NCBI GenBank assembly: GCA_965645245.1
Contig: OZ287083.1
Location: 496,001 to 560,000 of the forward strand
From: Massalongia carnosa
Lineage: Eukaryota
Direction of reading: 5' to 3'
Length of the DNA: 64,000 bases
Each line of letters starts with the position of its first letter. Position 1 is the stretch's first letter. Made by a program: the position numbers and the translations under genes. Positions 6,651 to 43,791 of this stretch are shown piece after piece. The notes beneath the pieces are model-generated. The model was not told where the DNA came from. It did no database searches and worked only from the letters and a program-made list of their open reading frames with translations.

Positions 6651-7567
6651 GTTTTGTTTTGGTGTTTTTAGTTGTTCTTTTAAAGGAAAGGAGGGGAAGG
6701 GGAAGGGGGGAGAGGGTTTCGTTATGGGCACATAACTAATGTAGCGGGATAGTGGGTTTTGGAGAGAGAGAGAGGGAGGAACGGGGATCCTAGGGAAGTT
6801 TAGGTAATTTTGGGTGTTGTTGCTGGAATTGGTTTGTTTGTAAATGGAAGATTTGTAGCCTAGGAGACTTATTTAAATCGCAATAACTGCGTGCCAGAGA
6901 ATTCATTACTCGAAACACCGACATTGATTATTTCATATGTTAACTAATGTCATGCTTGAAGAGGCCGCTATATAATAGAACAAAAGAGACCGAGCAATTT
7001 GGCAATGCTTCCATTTCCCCTACTATTTACAAGTGAGCCTGCGCCGTAAATTTAGTAAGGCTAACCTCCCATCTACGAACCCTCTTCAATGATGGTGAGA
7101 AAGATATTTTACAATCCCCAAAGACGATAAAGAGATGTCGGTAGCTGTAGATAGCGTGAGCGAATGTAGCACAAGATAGCAAATGGTGTCCGTGATGGAA
7201 GGTGTGAGCTCAGCCGGAAGCTTGGCCTTTTTAAATAAGAAATTAAGAGTAGGTAAATGGTAAAGCTGGCAACGCGAAGCCTGGAAAGTTCTATAACAGG
7301 CCACCGGGGTATGAAGCGCATATCAAAAGCAAAAAGCAAAGATCGAGAGGTAGATTGGATAGCTCCGTAAGATGGCTAACGCCCCAAAATTCTTCTGATA
7401 GGTACCAAAAGCCTGTCCGGTGCTGCTGACCGCTGCCGTGCCTGACGGAAAGCGGATCGGATCGTGTGAGGAATAATGAATCAGAGCGTAACTGCATCCA
7501 CGTTGCGGAAGCCGACAATGTTATTATAGCGTACGCGTTGGAGGGGGGATTTTTATGCTTAGTTTTA

Positions 7568-16763: not shown

Positions 16764-18864
16764 ATGGCGTACGAACCATCCAGCTTTGACTACACAGATC
16801 CGCAAATGCAATACTCGGTGGACCCCAGTCAATTCGAATCACAGAGAACAAGGCCCCGAGAATCATCTAATGCTCGCGGTGAAGCAAACCACTCAAGTTA
16901 TGCTCGATCAGCTCAGCCTCATGAGCCTCCACTTAGCGAGGCTGTCTTTTCGGCCTTAGGACATACTGACAGCTCTACCAATGTCCCTCCAGAGCTCATT
17001 GCCCAAATTACGGAGAGTGTCATTAAACAGCTTAAGAGCAGTGGCTTAGACAACGGGACACCCGCACCACCAAATCAGAAACCCTTCCCTCCTCCATTAC
17101 CGATACACCAACCGATTCCTCTATCAGCCTCAACCGCTTCGACAACCTCTCCACCAATGCATACTAGAAACGCATATACGCCTCCTTCACCACACTGTCA
17201 CCGGGATTATGGTGGCCATGGGTCACCAGAGCCGCACTCAAATACCCCGCACGGCGCAGCCATCAGTCCTCGAGGGTCACCAACGGCTCAGTTCAAAGAT
17301 AGAAGAGTCTCTTCTCCTTTCAGCCCGGATACCGATTCGGGTTATGCTCGGCCGAAAGGCCCGACGAGGCTCTCGACTGGTAGGGACGAGACAACTTTAG
17401 AAAAAATTTGGGGCCAACTCTTTGATGAAGAAAGCAATCCCACACCCAGACTTGGCCAATTCCTGCGAGGGCTTGCAATGCATATTGTATGTGAATAGAA
17501 AAGAATGAGATCGGATTGCTTGGTAGGGATATTAGCTGATGGTGGCTATAGATTGAGGATTACGAGCCATGTCACAGTATTGTAATTACTCCGGCAAAGA
17601 TGGTCAAATACTATCAAGACGTCAGGCTTCCCCACGAGAATTATCCATGGTCTGGTATGTATCGCTTGCAGCTGCCCTGATATCATGTGGCTAATTGCAA
17701 GCGTTAGCTGTATTTGACGACGAAAGATCATCCATTTCGCGAATGTACAGGCAACTTGGTTGCCAGCACCATCTAGTTCAAGAACGTAACGATGAAAAAC
17801 CCGACATTCCGGGTCTCACACCGGTTGGATTTGAGCGATGGGTGACGCTCTTAATACAAGCTCATCCTGATGAAGAATATAATCGACTTCAGAAGGCCGT
17901 TCTAGCCATGCCCATCAGCAGCCCGGATAAGAAGGAGCGGTTTCCGAAGGACATATCTCGAAGATTGTTCCCTGGTACCGGTGATCGTAAGATCCGTGAG
18001 CGCCTAGATGATGCTATAGCTGAGCACGCCGACGTGGAAATTCCAAAGCGTAGCAAGCGCGAGGACTCTCCCCATAAGTTGAGTGTTAACACGGAATCGA
18101 CGTATGTCCCGCCGACGCATCGGCGGGAAGCAAGTATTGGGGGTGAACCGGTATCAACATTGAATTTCATGCCGTCGGCGCTAGAACGTGAGAGAGCGCC
18201 GTACGCCAACACGCCCTCCGAAGCCATTATTGATAACACAAACCCGTTTCCACCTCCCGCCAAGCCTATAGAGAGGGAGCGGAAGCCTTATAGCGCCGTA
18301 CCTGGGGGTGGCAAAGCATTCGAGGATGATTTGAGAACAACAAAGCCTAAGTCTGAATCTACGGCATCTAGAGCTGGCAAATCCGATTCCACCGCCAAAC
18401 CTCGTCCTGTCCAAGCCAATACCAATGGACCACGGCCCATGGAGATGCCCAAACCAGAAATCCACAATCCTCATCACGCCACCAGCAACGTCCGACACCA
18501 GCGGAGTCCATCTTTCAGCCATGCGAACAATGATTTCCGGCGCTCCGACAGCGACCTGCGTGGATACCCACCCGTGTTCCAAAGTTCCTCTGTGCCTCCG
18601 GCCGAAGTCTTCGAAGAAGACCCTCGGCGATACGCGCGGGATCGTACCGACCGAGCTCGACGACAGGCTGACGAGGATTCACGTGCATACGGCGAAAGTC
18701 CCAGCACCCGTGCTCGGTACGACCGGGGGCCAGACCTCAATGGACCGCCGCGAGGCTCATACCCGAACGAGGAAGAATACTATCGTGGTGGTGGCCGGGG
18801 TGGCCCGGGCGGTGGGTACGAGTATCCACAGCCGCCGTATGGGGGGGGACCTGTGTATCGATAA
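16764..18864 (+). CDS. Conserved fungal proline-rich protein (DUF7514-like)
   Basis: ORFs 16764-17498 and 17695-18864 joined through two introns (~17487-17550, ~17655-17708). Core LEKIWGQLFD...RLGQFLRGLA..IEDYEP..PDIPGLTPVGFERW..RFPKDISRRLFP. Confidence 0.8.
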
Positions 18865-24571: not shown

Positions 24572-26341
24572 ATGGCTCCCTCCAGATATCGCCGACCCGC
24601 CTTGTCCACAGCCTATCCCCGGAAACAATCGTCCCCCCGGCGGGCCCTCAAGCTCGTCGCAATCGGCATCACCGTGCTGTTCATCTTCCTGCTGCTGACC
24701 TCGTCGCCGGTGCCCGCCGCCACGGTCGCCAAATTCCCCGCGCTCCGCCCGACCGCTCACCAACCGCCTGCGCAACCCAACAGCACCAGCGGCGACGCGA
24801 AATGGTATAGCGACTGGAAATGGCACAACCCGTTCTCGTTCGCCATCACGCAGGACGAGACGCGCTCGGTGCTCCCGCCGCTGCGGCCGAGACCGCCCAT
24901 TTACGCCTTCTACGATGCGGGGGCATCGAGCAAAGACAGGCCCACCCGAGCGGCCGAGGCGAAGCTGCTGCTTGTGTGGAGGCGGGCCTGGTGGGCGCAG
25001 GGGTTCAAGCCGATGATCTTGGGCCGGGCGGAGGCGATGAATAATCCGTTGTACGAGACCTTGCAGGGGAAGTCGATGGAGAAGTCCCTCGAGACGGAAT
25101 TCCTTCGATGGATGGCGTGGGGGACCATGGGAACGGGCATTCTGGCCAATTGGCTGGTTCTCCCCATGGCCGTTTACGACGATCACCTGCTCTCGTATCT
25201 TCGCCGAGGCGAGTATCCGAAGCTCACCAGGTACGAGGGGCTCAGGGCGGGCTTCTTCTCGGGCGAAAAGAGCAGCATCAACGGCGCGTTGGGCGAGGCG
25301 CTCAAGTCCCGGAAGCTGCAGACCGTGACTACGATCCTCGACGCGATCCCCGCCAACACCTTCGCCGTCGACCCCAAACCCGACGCCCTCGCGTTCTACC
25401 AATCCGCTACCCTGGCCGAGCTCTACAAACCGCTCGTGGCCACTATCGCCGAAGACAAACCCGCCGGTCTCCTGGCCCTTGGCCACCTCATCACCTCCCA
25501 CCTGCATCTTACCTTTCTCAACTCCTTCCGCGCCGGCATCGCCATCCTCACCCCGTACGAACCGCTCTCCTCCCTCCTCGCCCTCCCCGCCGCCCAAGTC
25601 GCCCACGCGCTGAACACGTGCCCATCCACGCCCATCCCTTCCTCCTGCCCCCCCAACAACCAGAAATGCGGCCCCTGCTCCCCCGTCCCGATCACCACGC
25701 CCGAATCCCACTCCAACTCCTCGTCCCTCTACACCATCGGCACCATCCCCCATCCATACACCCTCACCTCGCTGCTGGTGCGCAGCAAAGACGTCACGGT
25801 GCGGCAAATTCGGCGCGACATGGACCGCGACCCCTGGCTGCACATTGTCACGGAAAAGACGCTGGGGAAGCAGCTCGGCGGGCCGTCGAGGATCGTTCCG
25901 TTCAAGGAAACGGTCGCGTCGGAATGGGGCTTCGCAAGGGGACTGTGGATGACGGAGGACGGCACTCCGAGCCGGCGCGACTTGGCCTGGCGGTTTGGAT
26001 TCGCGTTGAGCGGTCATAACGCCTCCTCCTCCCCTTCCTCCCCCTCACTCGCCATGCCCGAGAAACACTCCCGGGCGCAACACGAGCTCCTCGCCACCGC
26101 GCTCGAGGTCGTGCGGAAAAACGACGCCGGCCCGGCGAACGGCATCCGGGACGCGGTCGAGGCGTGGAACATGGCGGACACCGAGGCGTGGCGGTTCGTA
26201 CGGGCGTTTGCGGCCCGGGAGGTGGTCGAGAGGCGGCGGTGGGAGGAGGAGGAGAGGCGGTTTGCGGGAGGAAAGGAAGAGGAGGAGGAGGAGTTGGGAG
26301 AGGAAGGGGGAAGGAGGGATGAAGAGGGGGGGTGGAAATAG
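24572..26341 (+). CDS. Conserved hypothetical type II membrane protein
   Basis: 589-aa ORF with strong GC3 bias, an N-terminal signal anchor (LKLVAIGITVLFIFLLL) and motifs WKWHNPFS, WRRAWWAQGFKPMILG, VEAWNMADTEAWRFVRAF. Confidence 0.85.
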   Translation: MAPSRYRRPALSTAYPRKQSSPRRALKLVAIGITVLFIFLLLTSSPVPAATVAKFPALRPTAHQPPAQPNSTSGDAKWYSDWKWHNPFSFAITQDETRSVLPPLRPRPPIYAFYDAGASSKDRPTRAAEAKLLLVWRRAWWAQGFKPMILGRAEAMNNPLYETLQGKSMEKSLETEFLRWMAWGTMGTGILANWLVLPMAVYDDHLLSYLRRGEYPKLTRYEGLRAGFFSGEKSSINGALGEALKSRKLQTVTTILDAIPANTFAVDPKPDALAFYQSATLAELYKPLVATIAEDKPAGLLALGHLITSHLHLTFLNSFRAGIAILTPYEPLSSLLALPAAQVAHALNTCPSTPIPSSCPPNNQKCGPCSPVPITTPESHSNSSSLYTIGTIPHPYTLTSLLVRSKDVTVRQIRRDMDRDPWLHIVTEKTLGKQLGGPSRIVPFKETVASEWGFARGLWMTEDGTPSRRDLAWRFGFALSGHNASSSPSSPSLAMPEKHSRAQHELLATALEVVRKNDAGPANGIRDAVEAWNMADTEAWRFVRAFAAREVVERRRWEEEERRFAGGKEEEEEELGEEGGRRDEEGGWK

Positions 26342-26590
26342 GGAAGGGAAGGGAAGGGAAGGGAAGGGAAGAGGTTGTTGTTTCTAGATACTTTATGGCC
26401 CAGATTGCGATAGGGTAGGGATACCTATTCGATTTCTTTTCATCATCACCATCACCACCACCTCATTTACCTACCTAGGTAAGTACATACATATCCAAGT
26501 ACAAATAAAGACCAAATTTGCGAACCCTACCTACCTACATCCCATCCCCCTCTCCCCTTCCTTCTTCCCCCGACACATGTACACATCTCA

Positions 26591-26622
<32 letters not shown>

Positions 26623-26644
26623 TATATATATATATATATATTAT
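26341..26644. repeat. SSR cluster ending in a compound (CA)n(GA)n(TA)n microsatellite
   Basis: (GGGAA)n, (CAT/CAC)n, (TACC)n, then CA, GA and TA runs directly before the MULE and cassette array. Confidence 0.9.
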
Positions 26645-29306
26645 GAGTACGGATACGTGGACACCCCTTTGGTTACCTGGACACCCCCTGAGGTTACCTG
26701 GACACCCCCCAGTGATACACGGACACCCCCTTCCTAGAATAGGTAAGAATCAAGGGTTCAGGCCCCTCACTTACCCACTTCGGGGTAAGCTCCCGGGCGC
26801 ATATCGGGGAAATTTTTTCCTTCACCTTTTGAAAGTGGTCGGGAGTTTCTGAAACGAAGTCGATTGGCACTGTCTTTGCAAATCAGACTCTGATTCTAGA
26901 AACTAAGCCTCATTTGGTCTAATTAATGATGATAACCTCCTCATCTCCGCTTGCTGTCGCTGTCCCCCCCCCCCCTGTCGCCGTCCCCGCCTCCGAGTCA
27001 TTTGTAGTCAGCCTATCTGCCAATCCCCTTGTTATAACCCCTCCTCTAGCCCTACCTCCCCGTCCCCGTCCCCATCCCGATCCCCGTCCCCGTCTGCCTC
27101 GTCCACGACCAGGTGCCGGGTCCGCTCGATGAACGGCTGATTGATCTGCATCCGGGTCCACCCGCTCGAAAAGGGAAGGATCACGATTAGTAGATGCCTC
27201 GAATGCTTGCTGTCTTCTATTCAAATTCTCCGCACCTGGAGGTCTACCCCTTGGTCTAGCAACTTCGGGTGCCTGAACCCGAAGATAAGGATTATCAATA
27301 GCCACACGGGCTGTCCTATCAAACCTCCAATGAGGATGAATATCTTCCAATAGCAACTTTCCCCCCCCATCCCCATACAATCGTTCCTGAATCTTATGAC
27401 TGCACGGAAGACCCATGGTTAAACTGAACGTTCCAGTACAGGCCGGAATAGCTGTTGGTTGACCAACCAAACGTTCGTATTGAGGCATTATCTTTCTCAA
27501 AGCATAGGAAGTGACGTATGGACTGATTTCCTGAAAGATAGGTTTGCGAATATCCATAGGTAGTCGCACCTTCGCTTCATCAAGACGAATCAGATGATTG
27601 TGAAGTTCATTGATCAATAGAAGATTGATTCCGTCCACCACCGTCTTAAGATCTCCAGATGATGACCCTAGCTGTCGCTTAAGTACTGCATGCCCACCTT
27701 CACCTCGAGAGGTAGTGGTGGTTTCGAAATGAGTAATCATACTGGTATAGCACTTGACAAAACGATGTCGGAAGGGTATGTAGATGTCGTTTAGATATTC
27801 CACACATTGATCCTGACCCTGATACTGAATCCTGAATCGCTCCCATGACTCCAAAAACTCTGGTTCTGACGAGGCATAAACGACCGTTTTCCAGTCAGCG
27901 AAGAAGGAGTCTCACGCCTCTTTGGTATCGAAGCTCTTCTTGCAATTGGTCAGGACGTTATTATTGATGTGCCATAAGCAAAGCAGATGATTGGTTGCGG
28001 GGAAAACATCCTCAATTCCAGCTATCAGACTCTTTTCCATGTCCGTGACTATGACGATCGGGTTAGGAAGCATCATCCCATCATACATACCTCGCAATTG
28101 CTGCAACATCCAGGTATAATCAGACGTGGCTTCCTTGGCCATGAAGCAAAATGCCACATAGAAGTTGGTATGTAGGGCGGTTTGACCACTGATGATCAAT
28201 AAGGGCATCTTATATCTGTTGGTTTTGTAAGTGGCGTCCATCACCAACACCTCGTAATTCGTCTTCAATAGTCGTTGAGAACAGCCCTTAATAAAGAATA
28301 AATGAGTTATTCTATCTATATCATCCTTTTGCATCTGATACGTCCAATCTCCTTGATCCAGCTCTCGGATTAATGCCTGAACCGGAGTCAATGGGCCGAG
28401 TGTCTCGCGACGAAGCTGTGCTTTGACGTTGTAGATATCCCGAGGTTTGAATAAGGGATTGATGATGTAGGGATTTTCTGGATCGTCAAAATTGATTCCC
28501 GTCGTCGGATCAGCAACACGAAGACTAGATAAAATCTTGAAAGGGGCTGTTTGCACGATCAGAGCTCGGGAAATCTCACTTTTAACCTCTTTCGTCATCG
28601 CCAATTTCCTCAACGCTAGATGAGCACCAGCGAGGGTAGAAGCATGATTATGAGTCGATTTGACCACCTCCAAAAACCAGATACCACTGTCGTTTTCTCG
28701 TGTGGCCACACAAGAGAAAGGGCATTCAATTCGTCGGCTACCCGTATGTCGCCGATCCTGACCTCTTGGTCCGTCGGTTTTTCTTCCTCGATCACATATC
28801 AGCCATGCCTTTCTTGTTACCTTAAGTTTCGACTTCTTGGTTCGACCCAAAACGACTGCGTATCCTTGACGACCAGCATGCTCATTGACTCGTAGAACCA
28901 GGTCTTCCAGACTTTCAAAACTTTGTCCATCCTCGGGGGGTGCAAGTCCGCCAGGGGGTAGAGGGCCAGGTGGTCGGGGTGGAGTAGCTGGTTCATCTTC
29001 GAGGGGTGCAAGTCCGTCAGGAGGTGGGGCAGGAGGTGGGGGGTCAGGAGGTGGTGCAGACATGATAAAGTGTCAAAATGTTGGTGATGAGGATGTTTAC
29101 TAAGTGCCAAAATGTTGGTGTTTACGGTTGAAAAAAAATTCCCGAGGTGCACCCTCGGGAGCTTACCCCGAAGTGGGTAAGTGAGGGGGCTGAACCCTTG
29201 ATTCTTACCTATTCTAGGAAGGGGGTGTCCGTGTATCACTGGGGGGTGTCCAGGTAACCTCAGGGGGTGTCCAGGTAGCCAAAGGGGTGTCCAAGTATCC
29301 GTACTC
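26645..29306 (-). mobile_element. Mutator-like DNA transposon (MULE), 2662 bp
   Basis: 151-bp TIRs (26645-26795, 29156-29306; start GAGTACGGATAC; 3 mismatches), 8-bp TSD TATATTAT (26637-26644 and 29307-29314), internal transposase. Confidence 0.95.
26919..29063 (-). pseudogene. MULE transposase with one internal stop
   Basis: The two ORFs are in one frame, separated only by TGA at 27912-27914 (TKEA*DSFFADW). FAR1/WRKY-like finger (ICDRG..ECPF..HNH), catalytic motifs VMDATYKTN, VTDME, LCLWHI, TTSRGEGGH, SWIM-like CTG..GLPCSH, AT-hook RPRGRP. Confidence 0.9.
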
Positions 29307-29531
29307 TATATTATATACACCCCGAACTTAGGATTGGCAATTACCGTTTACGATCAGGAAAGGGAGCAGGGCCGCTTTAGAGGGAGCATCGAGGGAGCAA
29401 CGGGGGAGCAAGAGGGAGCAAGGGGAGCACCGAGGGAGCACCGAGAGAGCAAGAGGGAGCACTATGGGGCAGTGCAAGGGCGCAGCAGGTGGGAGCCTGA
29501 AATGGCTCCATTGATATCGGCTTGAGCTGCC
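29307..29531 (+). repeat. Cassette left end, copy 1, with GGGAGCA array
   Basis: TATATTATATACACCCCGAACTTAGGATT...about 9 GAGCA units...TCGGCTTGAGCTGCC. Confidence 0.9.
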
Positions 29532-30054
29532 TTTACTGTTGATCACTTCACTGAGGCCCACCTGCTGTTACCGGCCAGGCTACGCCTGTGCTATGCTTTG
29601 CATGCTTACCTCTTCATGTTTCGGTACTGTAAGATCCGGACCCCTAGCACGGCGACGTCGGGTGCTTAGCGCCCTCCTTTCGTTGTCCGGGCTCTCGTAG
29701 ATACATTAAGGCAGGCCGCCCCTAGATTGCTCAGTAGCAATTAGTCTTCTACCATCTCCGCTGTCTGCTCACCGGTGCCGCGCCTTCGTATCGCCTGCTT
29801 CACGCTGTCACACCTCCAACCCTACAGGTACATAAATCGGATTAACTTAACTCCGCACAAAGCTTTCCTCTTCTACGCCTTCTATACTCGCTTTATCTAA
29901 CTAGATAAATTATTCTAGTCTATATGTACCCCGTCGCTCCTTGACCCAAGAACCCTCGATATTGCGCTTTTCCGCTTTTTAGTTTTCACAGCAGAGCGGA
30001 TTTTGCTAAAAGACGTATTTCTAAATTCCTATGCTGACGTAATACTCTAGAGCC

Positions 30055-32057
30055 ATGATACCTGTGGAGCCGATCAGTCTGTCAATTAGTGCGGTGGCCC
30101 TCGCGACTCTCTTCAGCTCTTGCTTGGAATGTTTCGACTACTTTCAGAGCGCCAAATCGTTCGCGAATGATCTTGACCTTCTGCTCGCGAAACTCGACTG
30201 CCAAAAAGAGCGACTGCTTACTTGGGGTGATCTGGTTGGTATCTCTAAATCTATTGAGGAAGGACGCCACCCAGATCTAGACTCTTCAAAAGGCGGACTT
30301 ATACACAGGTGCCTCCACTCCATCGAATCGCTGTTCTCGAGCACGGACAAGCTTCGAAAAGAGTATGGAGTGGAAAGTACAACCGCCCCTTTTTCGGCCG
30401 AAAACTCTCCAGATTACCTCAGCTCCAATAGAATGGATCGATTTCGAAAGTCTTACCTGCGGATTCGCTCATCCCCCACGAACCAGAGTAGAGGTAATAT
30501 TTTGTCAAAGACGAAATGGGCAATCCACGATAAAGCCAAGTTTGAGGCCCTCATCTATCACATCAAAGATCTTACCGTTGATATACATAACATCATACCA
30601 GTTTCAGCGCGATCTCAAGATAAAATGGTCCACAAGGACATCGCTTCCCTCGCCCTTCCAAGGTTACGCTTAGTCCAAAATGCTTGTGAAGGAACGTATC
30701 AAAACTGGTCAGATGTTGCCAGTGCCATCTTGATGGCCTCGGAGGCTGGGACAATCGACCGTCGAAGTGTTCGGGAGTGGCTTCAAGATACCAAGAGCGT
30801 AGAGCACGATGTCGCCGAGACTACGATAAGCACAGATGTCTCTATCGGATCTACTTTGGTCCACAAGGGTAAATTTTGTTTCAACAGAGTGACGCGATCA
30901 CCTTAACTCACATTCGTAAAGGGTTCGACCTCAGTGTCTCATCAAACACCAAATTCTACTTTGTATTTACCTCCGGCTGCTTTTCTAACGACTCGGAGAC
31001 GTATTGTCAACAAAAGGCATTCGGGCTCATGAGCTTGAAACAAAAAGGGGAAAGCTTCCTTCCAGGATTAAGTACATCACTTGCTAGAGAAGGAACTCTT
31101 GGACGTCGAATCACGAAGTCTATGAACGTGAAATTCGACTCGGATGATCTTGAAATGCTTCGCCAAGCAAACTACGATGTCAGTGATTTTCAAAAAGCTG
31201 CAATAGAGGCAAATCTGCCTTTAGGAAATGTATATGTATATTGTGCCCCATGTGCATGTGCTGTGCGAACCGCTCTCACAGTATGTGTTCAAGGTAGCTC
31301 GAAGTATCTTCCCTACAAGACAAGGGTGGACGACAGAATTTGCGCTAGTTGTTGTCCAGAGACGACCAAAATGGACCGGCTCATCTCTCTAGTTACCACT
31401 ATCAAAGAGATCGAAGCAGCACTTGTATCCGAAACAAGTGAATTTAATACGACCTGGGTAGGACACCTCGATCGTGTTTGGATTGAACAAAGAGTATACC
31501 GACTAGAAGAAGAAATCTATGCCCAGAATGATCCAAGATCTCGATTGGAAAGTGGAGCAGAGCTTCTGACAGAGTTTGCAAAACAAGAAAAAGCGACTGG
31601 CATTGTTTTCCTCGGAGAACTCGATTACTGTCAATGGATGTTACAAACGCAGCCTTTTCCATGGAAAGCGAGGGTTCCGAAGGAGACCGAGATCTATCAA
31701 CTTGAAAAGACGGCAAATCGACAGGGTTGGGATCGGAAATATCTCGGGACATTCACTCCGAAGAATTTCACCGCGACTGCAACCTACCTAAAGAGCGGCA
31801 CGTCAATGAAAACGCCTAAGTTAGAGGCAGCAAAAACTTTACCTTCGTTGCGTCCCACGCTGAGACATGCCCCGCCAAACTTGGAGCGCCAAGATTCTGA
31901 AGAACAGGAAGGGATAGATTCCAAGAAAAACCCAAGAGTGCAAGCTTCTACCAGCACACCTATCTCTAAAAATAGCACGGGAAGAGATGCTAAGTCCGAG
32001 CTCCAACCCATCTCAGAACCTTTTTTAGTTAAGACATTACTCCCGAAAATGACTTAG
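30055..32057 (+). CDS. HeLo (prion-inhibition)-domain protein with an unrecognised Cys-rich C-terminal domain
   Basis: EPISLSISAVALATLFSSCLECFDYF..DLDLLLAKLDCQKERLLTWGDLVG..KTKWAIHDKAKFEALI. A phase-1 intron at 30869-30921 joins the two ORFs in frame with no internal stops. Confidence 0.88.
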
Positions 32058-32239
32058 GCATATTGGCACATCCATTAAATCGAATGCAGTAGGCTATTGT
32101 CTTGGTTGTGGGTTGAAATTCACCCATTTTAGGCTCCGATTACTACGCCACTGCACTTCCCAATAGCGATCTTTTCGCGTTCTCGATACTCCATTGATAC
32201 TACCCCTTGCTTCCTTGCTACTTCCCCTAATACGGCCCT

Positions 32240-32624
32240 GCTCGCTTTAAAGGGAGTACAGAGGAAGCACTGAGGGAGCATAAGGGAGCATCGAGGGAGC
32301 ATGGGGGAGCATCAGGGGAGTAAAAGCACGAAGCGGGCCTTCGCGTGGGAGCAATGTTGCGGTGCTGAATATTTGAATCTTGAGGATACAATATATATAT
32401 ATTATATACACCCCGAACTTAGGATTCGAGATTACCGCTTTTGATCGGGAAAGGGAGCAAGGCCACTTTAGAGGGAGCACCGAGGGAGCAAGGGAGAGTA
32501 CCGAGGGAGCACCGAGGAAGCAGGAGGGAGCGCCGAGGGAGCAAGAGGGAGCACTATGAGGCGGTGTAGGGGCGCAGTAGATGGGAGCGTGAAATGGGTC
32601 CCCCAGCCTTCGGCTTGAGCTGCC
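32240..32624 (+). repeat. Right end / (TA)n / left end junction between the cassettes
   Basis: GGGAGCA array, 62-bp right terminus ending GAGGATAC (32389), short TA run, then left end copy 2 (32398-32624). Confidence 0.9.
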
Positions 32625-35600
32625 CCCGTCGTTTTCAATACCTTCAACCCCACTCCCACAGAATCTGTAACGGATTAACCCTTCGAGCGCGTTCTGCCCT
32701 GCCAAGGTCCATGTCAAGGATCTATGCATCAGTGATCATGACCTGAGCATGCCAAGCCATGCGCCTATTCGGGTTTAGCTTAGTAAGGCTGATAGGGCTG
32801 AGAAGCATCCTTCCTGGTCAACATAGATAGATTTCTTTATCAATCATACAATGATTCGACCAACCACCAAGCAACAGCTTAAAACCTCAACACTGTGGCT
32901 TAGCTAACACTTAAGCTTTCTTAAGTCTCCGGTTGACCTGTACACCCCCGCGCAGGCCTGTCGCCAAGCCTGTAGCACTCAACCTATCTATGGGATAGCT
33001 CCTAACAGCTTCGTTCCAGTTTCCTACGTTCTACAGTGCCTCGTAAATTACTCGTGCCACCTAGTTAGGCCGCTTTCTCAATGGTATCGCTTAGCTTGTG
33101 CTCTTATTTAGCACAGTAGTCTGTTTCAACGAGCCTCTTATATCAACTTATCGGACAAGTCAGGCTAATGGACATCTTCACCAGGAAGCGGAAGCAAGCC
33201 GGTGATCAAGAGTCGCTCAATGAAGGGTCCGATTCGTTGAGTATGAAATTGAAGAAGATATCACGCACGTATGGGCTTGAAATGCTTTATCAACCGGAAG
33301 ATGAGTCGAGTGCGACTAACGAGTTAGTGCCGTGAATGCATATCTACGGTTCAGGCTAATTCAATACAGTATTGTCTTTGTCTACGGCTTGGGAGGAAGT
33401 ATACAGACTACTTGGCTTCATGAGAAGTCTAAGGTTCACTGGCCAAAAGCTTTTATTGCCCAAGATCTTTCGAACTTCCGCGTGTTCGCATTTGGTTATG
33501 ACGCCGATGTTGTCAACACATGGAATCCAGCCTCTAAGAGTCGTATAACAAATCATGCACAGGATTTATTGGATGCGCTGGCTGGTGAAAGATATCTCTC
33601 TGAAACAGTAAGTTATAATGAAAGGCAAAACGACAACAAGTGTCTAAAGAATAAAATCTTTGAACAGAATGAACGAATGATTATATTTATCGGACACAGT
33701 CTTGGCGGACTGGTCATTCAACAGACGTTGTTAGCGTCGAAGAATGCTGTCGAAAAGTATATGCAAATGATTCACAAACGTACCTATGCTATTGCTTTCC
33801 TCGGAACTCTATACCAGGGGGCGGATCTGGCTAGATGGGCAGCATTCGGATCACAGATCATGAGTGTTTTCAAGTGCTCCAACACTGCTGTGCTCGACGT
33901 TCTACGACCTGGATCCGAATTGTTGGCGCAAATCCAGGAGAATTTCCAGAAAATGCTACGACTACGTAAGAGAGACGGTAGACCGATTCATATTATATGT
34001 TTTTATGAGCAGCTACCGCTAATGGTTACTGGAGACGTGAGTCATAATAATTCTATTTTTTACACTACAACGCTGATCTTTATAGCTTGTAGTTACTGCG
34101 CAGTCGGCGGTCCTACTAGCCTATCCGAGTTACGGCATTCATGCAAACCACATGGTTAGTCGAGCAGGCTAATATTGGAAAATATACTAATTTGTTAGGA
34201 CATGACGAAGTTCGAAACGCGGGGTGACGATGGGTATCAAACCGTCCTAAAGAGCCTCTTGATTTGGCAAAAGGGAATGTCTCAGATAGAGTCAGGTTCC
34301 ACGTCTAGGTGCTGTACGTAAAGAGAGCTTTTTTTTGAAGATCAACTAAACCCACGATCTTAGCACTTTCCGCTAGAGACGAAAGGCTTCTTCAAAAGTT
34401 CTACACTTGTGACTATGAAAGTCATAAAATGCTGTTACCTTCCGCAGTTGCCGGGACATACGAATGGATCCAGCAACATCAAAAGTATATACAATGGAAA
34501 GCTGGGTTTGGACCACGCCTTTTATAGATGACCTCTGATCCTGGATGTGGAAAATCGGTCCTGGTCTCATATCTTATCGATCAGCTCTATAGCGAGCGCA
34601 AAGCTGGTAGCAATGTTTGCTACTTCTTCTTCAGCGACTGCGACGGAGAGCGGAATAATAGTTCGAGTATGACGCGTTGCGTACTTCACTAGATTTTTAC
34701 CGCACAACCTCACCTTTTCAGACACGCGGAAGCGGAATTACGCAACAAAGGGAGCAGAGCCACCGAGCAATTTGCTACCATATGGGGAATTTTCCTAGCC
34801 GCTATCAGAGATCCACAGTGCAGAGAATTATACTGTCTTATCGATGCACTAGACGAGTGCGAATCTCACAGTCGGCAGCAGCTCATTAAGGCTTTGTCAG
34901 AGCTTTTCTCCAGCGAACCATCTGGCTGCGAAACAGCGCGGATTCGAGTGTTTGTGACAACTCGTACTATTGAGTACCTCAAATCTGGACCTCGTGGCCC
35001 TCAGAGCGTGACTTTAAGCGGGGAAGAAGCAATGGAATCCATCAGTAACGACATCTCTTTAGTTGTAAGAGCTAGGGTCAACGCGTTGACGCAAAGAAGG
35101 CGACTTCCAGAAGACGTTCAAAATCGACTAATTCAGCAACTTCAGAAAGATGCCGACCACACCTTCTTATGGGTTACACTTGTGCTTGAAATGTTAGAGG
35201 ATTCAGCAAATGCCTCGGAAGAAGCTTTGAATATCATGATTCAAGATCTGCCAAACGATCTGGATGGCGTATACGAGAAACTTCTATCACAAGCCAGTGA
35301 TGTTGAGATGGCTCGAAGAATCCTTCATATTGTCGTGGCGTCCTTCAGACCCTTCACGCTGAAGGAGATTAACATAGCTCTAGCCATACACTCTGACGAT
35401 TTTGCGATTGCAGATATGAAGCCTAAATTGGATCCAAGCATTGATTACGCTATCAGGAAAATATGTGGACCTATCGTTCGAATCAGTGACTCTAAGGTGA
35501 CTCTCGTCCATTCAACAGCAAAGTCTTTTCTACTCCGAAGGCCTCTCTATCCCGCCTCGGCAGGCAACTCGTGGAAGCGCTCGCTGTCTTCTGTTGACTC

Positions 35601-37547
35601 ACATAGTCTACTCGTCGACATCTGCACAAAATTCCTCTCCTTGGAAGAGATCAAAAATGACAGCATTTTGGATACTATCTATCCGAGCGATGTCGAAAGT
35701 GATGATCGCGAAAGCCAGTGCGGGAGTACGATAAACGATACAATTCGAAAAGGAGACCCATACGATAAAGAACGATTAGTGCTTATTGTGGATATTTATA
35801 CAAAACGATATGAATTCTTAGACTATTCTGCAAAACACTGGACTGAGCATTATCGCCGAAGCGAAAGAAAATGGTCGCTGATTCCTCGTATTGCGAGTCT
35901 CTGTGACGCATTCCAACCGTCTAGTTACTACACATGGTTTTACGTCTACACGACTTCTTCACCAATGTGGGGATATGAATACATTGAACTCTCGACGCTT
36001 ATGGTTGCGTCTTACTTTGGGCTTGAAGACCTCGCCGCAGAAGTGATCGGTAGCGGTGTTCGGATAGACGAAATTGATAATTGTAATTGGACCGCTTTGA
36101 TGTACGCAGCATGGAGCGGCTCTGAAGGGATTACAAAGATGCTATTGAAGAACGGGGCTAGGGTGAACGCGATAGGAGATTCACACACTGCGACTTTTCG
36201 AGAGGAGCACACGGCACTGATGGCTGCAGCGGCGAATGGACATACGGAAATCGTTCATCTGCTAATAGACCATGGCGCTGAAACAAAAACCCACACGGAA
36301 TTTGCGCTTTCTACAGCAGCTGCGAAAGGTCATGAAAGTGTAGTTGCCACGCTCCTAGGCAATGGCTGCGATATTGAGGAGTGCAATTATTACGGACAAG
36401 TCCCATTGCATCACGCATGTCTTAGCGGAAGAGGCAATGTGTTCAAGCTCTTGATTAGCCATGGTGCAAACCATTTCACCAAAGACAGGAATGGTAGGAG
36501 TGCGCTGGACATGGCAGTAGAATCCGGCTCCGAGGAAATCGTCAAATGGTTGCTAGCAAAAGGCGCAGACATTAACGGCACTGATTGCTATGGTACGACA
36601 GCCTTTGATCTTGCGCACTTTTTCGGACACAATCGCGTCATGCGTCTTCTTCTCGATCACGGAGCAAAGAGTCCTTATCTGGGAGATATTGATGAGAATC
36701 AGATTCAACCAAAGCAAGACGAGTTTTCATATAATGAGCGCTTAAGAAGCCTCGATTTCAATTCATTTACTTTAATGGAAATCCTTTGCTGCTTCCCTTG
36801 GGTCCTTCGAAAGGCATTACTGAGACCTGATGGTAAAGGCAACTTCGAAGATAATTCAAATTGGGGCGATGGGTTGGAAGGCCAGGTTCAGGAAATAGCA
36901 AAAAGGGTTGTTGCAATGATTGACGCATAATGTTGAGGGACAGGAAAAATCTTGATCAAGATAATGGAATCGTCTCTTTTTGGGGTAATTTTGTGGATGG
37001 TACAGGTTTTGGATCTAAAGTAATAAATCTAAATTCGTACCCAATGTCGCAAATAGCCAAAGTGTAGCCAAAGTGTCCCCGAAGCCGCGCTTCTCCCCTC
37101 GCAGGATTTGCAGTCTGAAACATGAGGGAGACGGCTGGCTCATATTGGTAAAGAGAGAGATGATAAGGGTCTTACACAGGATTCGGAGACTTTCATACCG
37201 ACTATAGTTGACAGAATCCTCACAACAGAGGGTTAGTGGTGAGTTATATTAGGCATAGCGAAAGAGCTAGGGGGTGTTGGAGGGAGGTAGCGTCTGAGCA
37301 GTCCCTGAGCAGCAAGGGAGTATTAAAAGAGTATAGAGGAGTAGCGAAAAAGCAAAAGGGCGCAGCGAGGGAGAGCATGGGGGAGCAGCGAGGGAGCAGG
37401 GGAGAGCACGAGGGAGCCTAGGAGCGAGCAGTGAGGGAGCAGGGGGATGCAGCGGGGGAGCAGCGGGGGAGCATGAGGGAGCAAATTAACGAAATGGGCC
37501 TTAGCATGGGAGCAATGTGGCGGTGCTATACTTTTGAAACTCGAGGA

Positions 37548-37550
<3 letters not shown>
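32398..37550 (+). mobile_element. Putative mobile cassette 2 (left end - NLR gene - right end)
   Basis: Same terminal modules as cassette 1 with an unrelated interior, followed by (TA)19 at 37551-37588. Confidence 0.75.
33168..36930 (+). pseudogene. Fungal NLR: alpha/beta-hydrolase (SesB-like) - NACHT - ankyrin repeats, with two premature stops
   Basis: DIVFVYGLGG, FGYDAD, nucleophile GHSLGG, Walker A DPGCGKS, Walker B CLIDALDEC, TFLWVTLVL, ankyrin repeats (WTALMYAA, TALMAAAANGH, PLHHAC). In-frame TAG at 34525-34527 and 34690-34692. Several short introns in the 5' part. Confidence 0.9.

Positions 37551-37588
<38 letters not shown>
37300..37588 (+). repeat. Cassette right end, copy 2, plus (TA)19
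   Basis: Long GGGAGCA/GAGTA array. 37489-37550 aligns ungapped with 32328-32389 at 51/62 identity. Confidence 0.9.
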
Positions 37589-37590
<2 letters not shown>

Positions 37591-37725
37591 AGTTTACGCG
37601 CAGGACGAGGAAAGTCGGATGGATGGATGGATGGATGGGCTTTTTTCTTCTTCTTCTTGTTGTTGCCGTCTGGTTTTCTTGGTTTTTTTTCTTGGGGTTT
37701 TTTCTTCGGGATCCCGCCCGCCAAC

Positions 37726-37757
<32 letters not shown>

Positions 37758-38027
37758 GATTGTCTATGTTGTTCTGGCTTCCTTTTTATTTATTTATGTA
37801 TTTTTCAACTCCGTGCCAGCTATGTACAATTTGTTTTGGAAATACCATTGAGATATTTTGAGCAAAAGGGTTGGGCGACGCCAATCAGAGGTTAGATAAC
37901 GATCAGTCATAGTAACCGAGAAAGAGTTGTATGATCAACTACACATTGTACCAAGGCTGTCCAACCTCTAGCTCAAGGAACTTCTTTGGTATATGGGACT
38001 CCTGCATCATCATATGTCATAGAGCTA

Positions 38028-38730
38028 TCAATAAGGGTTCGAGACGGGGTGAAATGGTTGTGGTCTTGTGACTTCATTAGATAATTTCCCTGTTTGAACA
38101 GCGTAAAAAATACAAAAGTGTATAGGTTTCTCGCTTGGTCTGAGAGGGTGGATGAAGGCGAATGTAAAATGATACTGGGGAGGGGTTGGAGATATAGCTC
38201 GAGAATCCTCCTGGACTTCATCACATCTCTTTCTCAGACTTTTCACATCCTCCGTTACAACGTTAACCATTTCTTTCAATGCTGTTATACTTTTCCTTAC
38301 GTCGTTTTGAGAGTCTATGATCTCTCGATGTGTGAAATTCAACCTTTGCGGAATAAGCTGTCCTCATTTCTAATTGAAAACATGATGCCTCTTCGTTGGC
38401 GCAATGGTTGGATGTTCACAAATATGTTTATCCTTGTGGCAATAACTGTATTTCGGTTGGCCCTCGTTGCGCCTGGTCTTCTTTAGGCGACAAGTAGAGC
38501 AGGCCTAGCAAAGGAGTCATTTTGACAGCAATCAATAAAGAACCTAGTCGACGTACCCGTTCCGCTCGTGAGTGTTTTTTGGATGCTTCATTCATTTCGT
38601 TCATTTCTAAATAGTTCGAAGGCGCATCGAAGAATGTATTGCCATTAACCGGGATATCAAATTCTTGGAATGGGGCGGAAGGGAGAGGACATTGACCATC
38701 AGTGTGTGCATCAGGAGGAAATAGGTACAT
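38028..38730 (-). pseudogene. Degraded gene relic with Cys-cluster remnant and coiled coil
   Basis: Reads KKTRRNEGQPKYSYCHKDKHICE, then stops, then the heptad-like segment IIDSQNDVRKSITALKEMVNVVTEDVKSLRKRC. Confidence 0.3.
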
Positions 38731-41272
38731 CTCGCGGTGTATCGCGGTAAGAGCAGAGCCAGGTTGTAGATAGTAGATTAAGGGTCAGGGTAGAGAATAT
38801 GGTGGAGCATCAGGTGGCGAATATGCTTGTGGAAGACATATTTCACCGGTGGGCTCGGAAATTAGAAAGCGCCAAAGGAATATAGCGCTTGGGGGTAAGG
38901 CTTGGAGAGCATGATTGATAGCGGTTGGGTGGGTAATTGTATCGGCCCCATTTTGGATAACTTTGTTATATCGAACGGGAGGGTAGTCAGGTGGGTTGGA
39001 ATGAGCAGATATTGAACCAGGCTGATCAATCGGCTGAAGAATGGAAGCTAGCCCACTAAGGAGAGAATAATGCGTGTTTTGGTTGGATTGACCAAGGTGG
39101 GACCGCAGAGAACAGTCTAAACCGGGATCCGAGAGTCGTTGCGAGCTCTCTTCGTAATGGGTTGAAGGTTGAAGTGGAGGAGTTTTCTTGTTCTCGACTT
39201 GCTGAGATGGATCAAATAGCGCTGGTCATTTGCAGTTTAGAGGTTGGCTTAGGCTGGCCGAACATACGTAAGTTTGCATTTCCAAGAGTTTGGAATATCG
39301 AAGTAAGGCAACAAGAAAAATCGCATGCAGGACATACGCAGTGCAAGCCAAGCATTTGTTATAGGTCCTTTGGACTCCATGATATTGTTCCACACACACA
39401 TCCTCTACACACATCCACTCCACCACACACATCCGCGCCTCCACACACAGCCGCTACCTACCAATATGGCTGAGTTAGAAGCAGTTTGTAAAGGGAACTT
39501 TTTATCTATCTAGATGGTGCATCTGGTCTGGGGGTCAATTGGAATGGGATCTTCTGAGGAGGGTGAGAGGGTAGCTATCGACAGGAACATAGACGGAAAC
39601 ATGGATGGAAACACGAAAAGGCGCGCTAGATTAGCGATCGGTACTTTGTCTTGGAGTCCAGAATTGCATCCACAACGATGTTGTACAGTCTTAGATTGCG
39701 AGGGTTTTATGTTTGCTAAACACAATGATGATGATTATAAACTCTTGCTCCGATGTGGTACCGGCCAAAGGCCAGCTCATGCGGGCTGACTCTACGTTTC
39801 TATGTTACATAGAAAACCTTTCTAGTAGGAGGAAAAATTCATATACTCCGGGCGATGCTCTTGCGAGTGGCCTGAGTGTATCAAAGTGACGAAACAGTGA
39901 GACCAATGATAAAAGGAAAGAAGTATTGTTGGCACAGTAGCTGGGTCAGTAGTATTCCTGACTGCATTAGTTAGGCGGTAAGTGCTTTGATTTTCTTTGG
40001 TGATTCGGTGAGTAGGCTCCGCAATATTCATGATATTTCATGATCAATACTTAACCAAGTTAGAGTCCGAAGAGAAATCTCGAACTCTTAGTGCACACTC
40101 CACACAGATCCCTTTCTCTCATTCCTTTTGAGATAGCGAGTAGCAGTCCGCTGAGATGTCCGATCTTTCTTTGTCCAAGAAAATATAGTATAAGACGGTC
40201 AAGCGATTGCCTTCGGCGCCACTTACGAGATCGCAGTTTGCAGTGTGAACTACATATAAGGGAGTATGCAAGCAGATTCCTCAACGCTCAAAGGCAAATG
40301 CCAATGCTCACCGGTGTGCTCTGTGTCCCGGGGCTTTCCTGGAGAAATGGAGACTCAATAATAATATGAAGAGCCGTGTATATCGAATCAAGGCTTGATG
40401 AACTCTGTTGAGACATGTAGATGGCTCTGCAACAAAAGTTTGCTCACGTTGTAATAAGACGCTCAAACAAAGCTTTTCTTTGACGGAGCATCAAAGCTGT
40501 GGCCGTTGCAACCCGTATATCAGTAAGATATTACTTTAAATTTCAACTCTTCAGGTTCAGCTATTGATATATTTCTACAAAGCTCTCGAGAAAAACCGCA
40601 GCGTTCTCGACCAACAGGATACAAGGTTAAACGGCGAAACCTATGAGACTTCAGTCAATATGCATTATACGAACCTGTTCCAAGACCAACTTTACCCTTT
40701 GACCACTGCTCCTATCCATGGAGCTGACGGTGACGTTGCAAGCAACAATTTTGTTGCTACATCTAATTCCGATGTCCCATTGCTTCCCTCCCATCCAGCT
40801 CTCTGGCAGAAGGATTTCAAGAACTGAGGTTCGTATTCTATTCAAGCAGAGGAGACCTTTGCGGAAGGCTGCAGAAATACAGAAAATATAAACGATTTAT
40901 ACCGCAGCCCAATGGTGGATAGCCTCAGTGCCATTTGGGAGCAAAGCAACCGACGGTCAATATTTTCGGTGGTATGTGGCAGCAGAACGCTCCAATGGTC
41001 GATATGATGTAGGCGTGAGTCCCGACCAAGCTTTAATCAAATTGATCTAATGGTCAATATTCTTCCTCGAAGCAACCCAACAATCAATCGAAGATGAACG
41101 CAGTGACAGCATTATTCTATTGGCTATGTTGCTTATTTTACTACAGTAAAAGGATAAGATACAGATTCTTGAACTTATAAGGAGGATTTCGATCCATTTC
41201 AGTCCTAGAAAATCGTTGTGTTATTAGTTCAACAAAATACCTAGTCTACACTACTAAGAGAAATGATGAGCG

Positions 41273-41788: not shown

Positions 41789-42623
41789 AGAGTTCTTGCG
41801 TATGGTTTCAACAGAAAGATTATTGGAGAGTGATGACTTCGGGCTAACTTACCAAACTGATAAAGTAGTCTGGATTTGTGATCCGCGATAGCTGCTTCCG
41901 AAGTTAGTTGCTTTTACGGAGAATCCCCACCAGCTGGGGACGCTACTAGCGCAGAATGAAATGTCATGTATAGGTAATACGGCAGGACGCCACAATGTGT
42001 TTCTTTACCCTATACAGAGTACTCTATACAGAGGTGATTCCTAGGTATTTAAAAACACCCACAAATCCCATTCAAATCTATCTCCTAATCATGAAACTTG
42101 ACAACGCGACCGACTAATACAAAGCCAAGAAGCTACATAGACTTAAAGTGATCATCTTATTTCGGACTGGACGGTAAGAGTAAACCTCCCCCATCATTCC
42201 CACAATCATGGTCTTACATCTAGTCAAGATGGACGTGAAAGAAGACGAGCAGTGAATCTACAATGGACTTACAAGATAAAGAAAGTGAGTGCTTCCTGCT
42301 TATGCAAAGATACCTCTTCTGATCTTTGATAGGAAAGCGCTCTCGTGGAATAACTCGGGAACTATCACTCAAACCTCTTTGTAGAAGCTTAGGACTTGAA
42401 CGTCTCCATGATTAACTCGGGCCTAAAGGCGAGGACGTGGAACAATACAAACCTCCCTCTTCTCCGGTGAGTAACCTTCCTTTGAATCGTACCTCATACC
42501 GTGTTATGACGACTTATTCAGGACGGAAGTTCTCCCTAGGATTCATTAGCTTCCGAAAAACCCCATACAATCGAATCTTGGATCCTAAGCCCCACAGCGT
42601 GCGATCCTCTACCAGTTGGTAAT

Positions 42624-43791
42624 GTGACAAAGAAGCGCACGCTTGACTCCGGCGACGAGGACAGTTCTGCGTTTTCTAAACATATATTAAAAGGATCCTG
42701 TCTAATAGCTCAGCCTCTTACAAGAAAAGCTCTCAAGCAACACGACTCGAAGACCAACAAGCTTCATGGGTTACCAGGAGATCGATCACAACCCCTGGCT
42801 GATATTATCTCTCAAGTAACCACTTAAGACACTATGTCAAAAGCCTCTGCTCTATCTACCATCACTGCTGATGTTTTTGCATACGAACAAGAACTACGGC
42901 GCCGCAAAATCTTTGATGCAGATACAGAAACGATATATGAGTATCCAGATAATTGGACAGAACTTGAAAAAGTTCTTCGACAAGGCAGAGATTCTCCAGA
43001 GCCCACATCTATTCAGCATAAAGGGTTTCGCCAGATAGTTTTTAATGCGGACAACGAAGCTTCGGTCATGGCTTTGGTATGTCCTAAGTTTCTTGAGGAT
43101 CAGTGGTTCGACGAGCCTGGTATTGCTTGGCAACATAACAAGCTTTAGACCAATGTACCGTTCTACCCTCATATGGAACCAAAACTTCCGGCTCCCAAAC
43201 CCGATCAGGCAATTGGCTGGACCTCTAAGCTATTTGACAAATTTGATGCGAGGGCATTATCGATTGATATCTCATCTACTGGTCCAAGAGCTGTGCGGTC
43301 CTTTGCAGCCCCTGGAGAAAATATGCATTGGCCGGTTTTCACAGTCGAAGGCAAGGGTGCCGCAGGCCAGTTACGGAAAGCACAACGTCAGAATCTGTAT
43401 AATGCCGCCATCATGATCAACAATCTTTTGGAGCTGAAGAAAATGGTTACATCAAAGGATTCGCCCTTTGGTCGAGCTCTGGTGATGTCAATGGAGCTTA
43501 CGGCAGAGGTCGTCCAACTAAACTGCCACTGGGCTATAAGATCCGCCGAGGGAGATATCATTTTCTATGGCAAGACTTTGGGATCTTGGTCCCTCCACTG
43601 CCCTCGCCCAGATACATAAGGAAGCCAAACGGAGCATTTCAAATGGTGTGGACTGGATAAGAAAAACTGCTTGCGCCGGAATCCTGCGGGATCTTTCCAC
43701 CCTTGAAACCCTACCCATTGTATCAATGATCCAAACGCCTTCAGATAACCAACAATTTTTGGCTCAGGCTAACAAACCTCCTGACATCTAG
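42624..43791 (+). pseudogene. DUF7924-like (restriction-endonuclease-fold-like) pseudogene
   Basis: ORFs 42624, 42834 and 43173 are one frame split by TAA (42825-42827) and TAG (43146-43148). Motifs LPAPKPDQAIG and WPVFTVEGKGAAGQLRKAQRQNLYNAA. Frameshift near 43615. Confidence 0.65.

Follow-up and report, generated by a model that had tools for sequence, protein, structure and literature searches.

A repeat-flanked TA junction in Massalongia carnosa as a probable seam between two gene-carrying units

The locus and its repeats

The stretch of DNA analysed (the window) comprises 64,000 nucleotides of contig OZ287083.1 of Massalongia carnosa (assembly GCA_965645245.1, positions 496,001 to 560,000 of the forward strand). 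Around the region of interest it is an ordinary fungal chromosome segment, the long ORFs of which encode a Nup98-96 nucleoporin, protein kinases, and fungal DUF proteins. Two units were identified, each with a left end (L), a gene, and a right end (R), and the HeLo and NLR-type genes lie side by side, each in its own unit (Table 1). The HeLo gene consists of two ORF segments, probably with one intron between them. The NLR-type gene has, by Pfam, a DUF676 serine-esterase N-terminus, an NPHP3_N/NACHT-like NTPase, and ankyrin repeats. The left ends are 84-87 % identical to one another and the right ends 82 %. There was no match to known RNA families (Rfam) at 26000-38500 with E up to 0.1. GC skew climbs to about +0.2 across 36000-40000. 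Within these limits are R2, the (TA)19 tract, and several short tandem repeats rich in G and T (37674-37757 and 39402-39454).

The host microsatellite at the left is the left flank of the two-unit insertion, later split by a Mutator-like element (MULE). This element has inverted arms of 174 nt that are 93 % complementary, sits in the TA tract of L1, where its insertion produced a duplication of 8 bp rich in TA (TATATTAT), and is not a member of the family to which L and R belong. Once the MULE and one copy of the duplication are taken out, the host TA tract is followed immediately by L1, so that the locus resolves into two L-gene-R units, head to tail, in one TA microsatellite. The MULE arms contain 21-nt subterminal repeats (ACCTGGACACCCCC...), its transposase frame is split between the ORFs 26919-27911 and 27912-29072, and its summed contig depth in run X3 is approximately 60-fold that of the flanking bins.

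Table 1. Features of the two-unit locus in the window
Feature	Position	Strand	Basis or content
Host (CA)n(GA)n(TA)n microsatellite	26590..26644	.	Sequence read; TA x9 at 26623-26640
Mutator-like element (MULE), nested	26645..29306	-	PF10551 MULE transposase domain, E 4e-27
L1, left end of unit 1	29307..29531	+	Similarity to family stops near 29550
L1, A/T tract remnant	29307-29317		
L1, terminus	29318-		CACCCCGAACTTAGGATT
L1, repeat array and GGGAGCA cluster	29362-29461	+	8 GGGAGCA
L1, L tail	29462-29531		
Unit 1 cargo, HeLo-domain gene	30055..32057	+	PF14479 HeLo, E 3.8e-44
R1, right end of unit 1	about 32150..32389	+	Head, repeat array (about 32252-32317), tail ending GAGGATAC
R1, GGGAGCA cluster	32274-32353	+	5 GGGAGCA
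A/T tract between R1 and L2	32390..32408	.	AATATATATATATTATATA, 19 nt; 'TA core' of the sequence-only reading
L2, left end of unit 2	32409..32625	+	Terminus (CACCCC from 32409), repeat array, L tail 32554-32625
L2, repeat array and GGGAGCA cluster	32453-32553	+	6 GGGAGCA
Unit 2 cargo, NLR-type gene, several exons	33168..36930	+	Pfam matches, ORFs
R2, right end of unit 2	about 37300..37550	+	Repeat array 37371-37514; tail ending GAGGATAC
R2, GGGAGCA cluster	37381-37514	+	7 GGGAGCA
(TA)19 tract, right flank of two-unit insertion	37551..37588	.	Unique host sequence beyond

An earlier reading of the DNA from its letters alone (the sequence-only reading) had likened the joint between R1 and L2 to a tyrosine-recombinase attachment site, with a TA core and helically phased arm repeats. 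Its description of the repeats is borne out. The window contains 34 copies of GGGAGCA where 9.2 would be expected, a count reached in 0 of 100 shuffles, and 26 of the 34 are on the + strand, in four clusters. The units do have the same orientation on either side of the TA tract and are mostly 10-11 bp apart. The GAGCA starts that it listed for L1 are correct, that at 29447 being a GAGAGCA variant, and the measured spacings (20, 11, 11, 10, 9, 11, 11, and 10 bp) agree with its statement that most are 9-11 bp; Tandem Repeats Finder gives periods of 10, 11, and 21. The 11-bp block GAGCAGGGCCG of L1 (29364) recurs inverted in the head of R1, at 32233-32243, one base to the left of where it had been placed. 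An A/T tract does separate R1 from L2, although the supposed TA core is 19 nt of A/T and not a bare TA dinucleotide. The head of R1 (32200-32262) contains a few inverted repeat units (CTTGCTTCCTTGCTACTTCCCC) together with the inverted 11-mer, followed at once by units in direct orientation. This local palindromic junction is absent from the R end of locus L080, the head of which aligns directly to L.

The dispersed family, its ends and its cargo

Further copies were sought with an exact 18-nt word from the L head, searched against fungal metagenome contigs. At least 124 matching stretches were found, nearly all in one set of assemblies. The loci studied come from a small set of related assemblies, with full flanks covered for 80 of them, and because they were drawn with the exact L-head word the sample is biased toward L-bearing loci. 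Among the matches listed there are 122 distinct L heads, in which a 75-nt head is strongly conserved. The order in L is (TA)n, TTATATA, CACCCCGAACTTAGGATT, approximately 26 variable bases, GGGAGCAGGGCCGCTTTAGAGGGAGCA, the repeat array, and a tail of approximately 70 nt. A possible hairpin in the head, CCCGAAC...GTTCGGG, has a right arm that varies without compensation and a left arm that is fixed by the search word.

Between members, similarity is confined to approximately 235 nt at L and 240 nt at R, and the approximately 500 nt that lead from the L tail to the start codon differ in every unit. Nearly all L heads among the matches listed are preceded by an A/T run, mostly of 13-26 nt, and then by unrelated sequence. 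The R tails form one alignable family with a longer and a shorter form, which differ by a 20-nt block; both finish in ...GATAC or ...GAAAC and are followed by a TA run. In run X9, from a second organism, unit 2 (32471-37286) is covered at about 95 % identity, and the contig depth on L and R is several times that of the single-copy unit 2. Contigs with loose ends, five just before 29307 and 16 before 32391, have mixed AT-rich flanks. Cover was lacking in X9 for unit 1 and the right flank, and almost lacking in X22, and this is not read as absence.

The termini were compared in 27 R and 117 L ends among the matches listed. Terminal inverted repeats are present in the family, short and imperfect, and many R ends carry an inverted copy of the L terminus. 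The L-type terminus motif is TTATATACACCCCGAACYYAGG. In the better-kept R termini the reverse complement reads TATATA-GTTT-CCCCGAACCCAGG, where L reads TTATATA-CA-CCCCGAACTTAGG, so that TTATATACACCCCGAACTTAGG of L pairs with reverse-complemented TATATAGTTTCCCCGAACCCAGG of R. By reading, CCCCGAAC is exact in 8 of the 27 R termini and near-exact in two to four more, among the matches listed. In one member (L050, 1244-6573) two full L ends are inverted around a HET gene. R1 and R2 of the window have the degenerate type of inverted terminus, GTATCCTCGAGTTTCAA, which is why the sequence-only reading saw weak inverted similarity and nothing stronger beside the core. That similarity is real, and comparison with the family identifies it as what is left, after decay, of a short terminal inverted repeat.

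For the genes between the ends, 186 ORFs of at least 220 aa from related loci (40 + 86 + 60) were scanned with Pfam, as were 22 ORFs of the window. HET domains were present in 9 of the 186 (by count), and NACHT, NB-ARC, or NPHP3_N NTPase domains with ankyrin or TPR repeats in at least four. Other domains included SesA, PigL_N, and Schlafen-type helicase, the rest being housekeeping genes of the flanks. Among the matches listed, the first long ORF within 3 kb of the L head was on the same strand for 23 heads and on the opposite strand for 11, and 25 had none (n=59).

This excess of same-strand ORFs, many of which start about 570-1070 nt from the L head and nine of which (9/23, by count) are of HET or NLR type, would be expected if L were chiefly a regulatory module before HET, NLR, or HeLo genes, serving as promoter or insulator and containing phased factor sites together with a TATA-like tract, with R as the terminator-side module and mobility secondary. 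The mimp elements that reportedly lie in Fusarium effector promoters would be a precedent. It is nevertheless very unlikely that this is the main role of the ends: the sequence of about 500 nt from L tail to start codon is unique to each unit, 25 of the 59 L heads lack a long ORF in the nearest 3 kb, and some adjoin housekeeping genes.

No transposase attributable to the L/R family was found in the 186 ORFs, the transposase domains there being two Tc1-like DDE_3 matches, in L001 and L080; termini were read for the L001 element alone. Likewise, no tyrosine or serine recombinase was found in the 186 ORFs near the listed family members or in the 22 window ORFs; such an enzyme might still act in trans from another part of the genome. 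Two candidates for an autonomous partner were rejected. The DDE_3 gene of L001 belongs to a separate element with its own, unrelated inverted repeats. This Tc1-like element (about 6500-9400, - strand; DDE_3 ORF 8520-9254; inverted repeats TTCCAAACCCTTTTAAGGCC) is nested about 500 nt inside a unit of the L/R family. The MULE of the window has inverted repeats unlike L, with, by reading, ACACCCC alone in common between the termini, and no homologue in the 124 loci listed.

Junctions and the origin of the R-TA-L joint

L heads were merged when at least 94 % alike over at least 600 nt, which reduced 75 to 64 independent loci among the matches listed. At 12 of these, including that of the window, the L end is part of an R-TA-L joint; five are inverted L-TA-L junctions, one adjoins an inverted repeat array, and 46 border unique sequence. 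Of 35 distinct R ends among the matches listed, 16 are in R-TA-L joints and eight in inverted R-TA-R junctions, and 11 are followed by a TA run and unique sequence. Joints between R and L therefore exist outside this tandem. Every junction type is at a TA tract, and R-TA-L joints have A/T runs of 8-23 nt, mostly 17, which do not exceed in length those before solitary L ends. The three junction types fit repeated insertion, in either orientation, into tracts bordering earlier insertions; since TA is palindromic, the pattern alone is also compatible with crossover inside the tract.

Modular arrays in which no element interrupts another are seen in the window, with two units, and in L061, L023, and L027, with three to four L heads. 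A single member was found in two settings: 3242 nt of L061 (9984-13225), comprising L end, HET gene, and R end, are 99.4 % identical to L006 (10035-6805), and the homology extends exactly from the A/T tract in front of L to the TA run that follows R. The L061 copy is within an array, where its neighbours are an R end to the left and an L end to the right; that in L006 (and in L054) is solitary, with unique sequence on both sides. The number of repeat units in R differs between the L061 and L006 copies. These comparisons support L and R as the ends of discrete mobile or duplicating units, joined to the genome and to each other by the TA tract.

Every complete member examined lies between (TA)n runs, and a target-site duplication is unreadable for that reason. 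Filled and empty versions of a site were sought among orthologous loci, and no clean pair was found: of 15 large indels, the ends of six kinds were read and none was of the L/R family. Beside the L tract of L023 and L027 a segment has been replaced (275 vs 3476 nt), which is not a clean insertion. An unrelated miniature element of 751 nt (L055 1470-2220 vs L035 2188-2197) is polymorphic between two assemblies, with inverted termini GGGGTTACAGTTGG... and a 10-bp duplication, GTATAAAACC. Further polymorphic insertions are of 580 nt (L051 7256-7835) and 3077 nt (L073 14946-18022).

Taken together, the R-(TA)-L joint is most readily read, with a probability of roughly 60 %, as the seam between two neighbouring elements that are non-autonomous, have inverted terminal repeats, carry genes, and home to TA tracts. 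In a member, an A/T tract is followed by the L terminus TTATATACACCCCGAACTTAGG..., then by a block of approximately 160-200 nt with a GAGGGAGCAnn array, one complete gene with its own flanks (often HET, NLR, or HeLo), a second repeat block in the same orientation, the R terminus as an imperfect inverted L terminus, and an A/T tract. The cut at the inverted termini would be made by a transposase acting in trans, which may be Mutator-like as it is for the plant elements, and the element would be pasted into a TA microsatellite. As insertion would leave TA tracts on both sides, later insertions could adjoin earlier ones and so build non-nested arrays. The 10/11-bp repeats may be either protein-binding sites or just a fast-slipping 21-bp minisatellite. 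Against the seam reading, direct repeat blocks in the L-R forms are unusual for subterminal transposase sites, the inverted terminus of R1 and R2 in the window is degenerate, and the 186 ORFs contained no transposase of the family. In its narrow form the result is sobering, the 'att-like' joint being probably two neighbours in one TA tract.

The inner blocks of L and R share approximately 160 nt in direct orientation, including the repeat array, with a score of 101 direct against 32 inverted. Three short members consist of L head, repeat array, and R tail, without cargo (L048 18511-18768, L061 3405-3627, and one in L023). Of 79 L heads among the matches listed with enough downstream sequence, 51 continue into an L tail, one is followed by an R end at a distance of up to 650 nt, and in 27 neither is present. 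Apparent joints from L to R in contigs aligned to the window (for example 29400 to 37373, with a shorter side of 26 letters) lie inside the repeats and are too short to count as proof of short forms, and a back-joint from 32512 to 32296 is ambiguous too.

Such direct blocks, with the TA tracts, could be substrates for homologous recombination by the host, which might itself shuffle the units: exchange between L and R would loop out the cargo and leave a short form, and the reverse or ectopic exchange would place cargo at other copies. The short forms, the replaced segment in the orthologous L023 and L027 arrays, and the gain and loss of repeat units in near-identical copies agree with this. 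As an explanation it is considered distinctly improbable, since the 46 of 64 L ends (among the matches listed) that border unique sequence indicate that new sites have been colonised, the L006 copy is solitary with unique flanks on both sides, and homologous exchange alone would not maintain conserved inverted termini.

The number of GAGCA cores per L array ranges from 0 to 17, with a median of 6 (79 L copies among the matches listed). Of 392 core spacings, 106 are 10 bp, 168 are 11 bp, and 88 (22 %) are 20-22 bp, and the mean of single spacings is 10.55 bp. Successive spacings are 10-10 in 11 pairs, 10-11 in 61, 11-10 in 71, and 11-11 in 37 (chi-square 44, p 3e-11). The alternation of 10 and 11 is far above chance and the real unit is therefore a 21-bp GAGGGAGCA dimer, equal to two helical turns. 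In 55 of 77 copies among the matches listed, a distance of 46 nt separates the terminus from the first core. Other copies in the organism of the window show insertions of 11- and 22-nt units.

Spacing, for which conservation across copies had been the proposed check on the sequence-only reading, is thus constrained to 10/11 bp and mostly starts at a common offset. Given this and the R-TA-L joints elsewhere, neither of the two outcomes named as refuting that reading, unconstrained spacing or a joint confined to this tandem, was seen. Core number is not constrained, and even the copies with 99.4 % identity differ in it. Constrained spacing with free number is accounted for equally well by slippage of a 21-bp unit and by selection for phased binding.

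The attachment-site idea itself can be put as follows: a circle is the moving form, the R-(TA)n-L joint is its attachment site, and the phased GAGGGAGCA repeats bind a recombinase that carries out crossover in the TA tract against genomic (TA)n, in either orientation, as TA is palindromic. The TA tracts on both sides of every unit, with no readable duplication, would fit, as would the failure of A/T runs in the joints to exceed those at solitary L ends, the strict alternation over two helical turns, the fixed offset of the first core, and the lack of a transposase among the 186 ORFs. Nevertheless, neither the 186 ORFs near members nor the 22 of the window include a tyrosine or serine recombinase, the variable core number is not what arm sites would predict, and the inverted termini and the inverted L-L member, L050, fit a DDE transposase better than they fit fungal Cryptons, which are not known to have inverted repeats. 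Contigs cannot tell a circular R-L joint from a chromosomal tandem joint. With 46 of 64 L ends solitary among the matches listed, the analogy to a tyrosine-recombinase site with arm sites found no specific support, and it is judged distinctly unlikely. Because no enzyme, duplication, or empty site was found, both this reading and host recombination keep a small probability beside the preferred one of two adjoining transposon-like units.

A wider proposal, unlikely as it stands, is that the family forms a fungal 'gene cassette' system. In this, small TA-homing elements, each with one complete allorecognition or immune-type gene (HET, NLR, or HeLo) between direct G-rich blocks of 21-bp period, would line up in modular arrays. 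Exchange between L and R blocks would replace or remove cargo, and the short forms would be emptied docking sites. If true, it would be a eukaryotic analogue of cassette arrays and a driver of rapid turnover in fungal NLR/HET repertoires. Fungal HET, NLR, and HeLo genes are numerous and strain-variable, and their spread is poorly understood outside the giant Starships. A TA-homing family that stacks one-gene units would give a simple mechanism for changes in HET/NLR/HeLo copy number and position.

Comparison with known elements

SaTar elements, which include rice Micron, are described as non-autonomous Mutator-like elements that are flanked by (TA)n and form modular non-nested arrays, with 10-bp duplications for members outside microsatellites (PMC5907723). 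MuTAnT of Medicago is a Mutator-like family targeting TA microsatellites (PMC4486113). SaTar, Micron, and MuTAnT are like the L/R family in their imperfect terminal inverted repeats, (TA)n on both flanks, linear non-interrupted arrays, and lack of an internal transposase. They are plant elements of 0.4-1.9 kb without genes, whereas the L/R family is fungal and its members are 3-6 kb with one complete gene. Unlike in them, the ends of the L/R family have a minisatellite block that is direct, not inverted, and neither a 9-10-bp duplication nor, with the MULE of the window as the one compared, a matching autonomous MULE was found. The L/R family would extend microsatellite-targeted modular array assembly, described so far in plants, to fungi. 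A listing-level literature search found no report of such a fungal gene-carrying element in TA microsatellites.

Pack-MULEs are plant Mutator-like elements that carry gene fragments between long inverted repeats. They share with the L/R family a non-autonomous nature, inverted repeats, and host-derived coding sequence between the ends. Their cargo is fragments, whereas that of the L/R family is a whole gene with introns and its own flanks, biased to HET, NLR, and HeLo genes. Tyrosine-recombinase elements, such as Cryptons and phage or ICE att systems, are like the L/R family in having short identical flanks, no readable duplication, and repeated motifs near the junction. Fungal Cryptons are not known to have inverted repeats. 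Unlike these elements, the L/R family has inverted termini, 0-17 'arm' repeats, and no recombinase among the ORFs scanned.

Starships are giant fungal cargo elements of tens to hundreds of kb. Tangerine, a Starship of lichens, has a tyrosine-recombinase captain and 4-5-bp direct repeats (PMC13486527). Both Starships and the L/R family are fungal and move NLR, HET-type, and other accessory genes; unlike Starships, which are giant and, in the case of Tangerine, have a captain, the L/R units have a single gene and no captain and lie in TA tracts. The mimp elements of Fusarium are reportedly short, of Tc1/mariner type, and located in effector promoters. They resemble the L/R family in their TA target, short inverted termini, and tie to a particular class of gene. 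Mimps, however, are short, lie in promoters, and have a TA dinucleotide, whereas an L/R unit encloses its gene between its ends and is bordered by long TA runs.

Two further classes were rejected. Helitrons have a 5′ TC, a 3′ CTRR, a 3′ hairpin, and insertion between A and T, and the termini here are ...TATACACCCC and ...GATAC or ...GAAAC. LTR retrotransposons have identical long direct terminal repeats, TG...CA, and a 4-6-bp duplication; L and R share an internal block of approximately 160 nt only, their outer parts differ, and the cargo keeps its introns, so neither an LTR element nor a solo LTR is indicated.

DUF7924 reading frames were noted in the window and in L061. In the window (42540-43619) they are broken by stop codons, with consecutive ORFs at 42828-43148 and 43149-43619. 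In L061 an intact DUF7924 ORF (17588-18514, E 5e-82) is present 4.3 kb downstream of the fourth L head.
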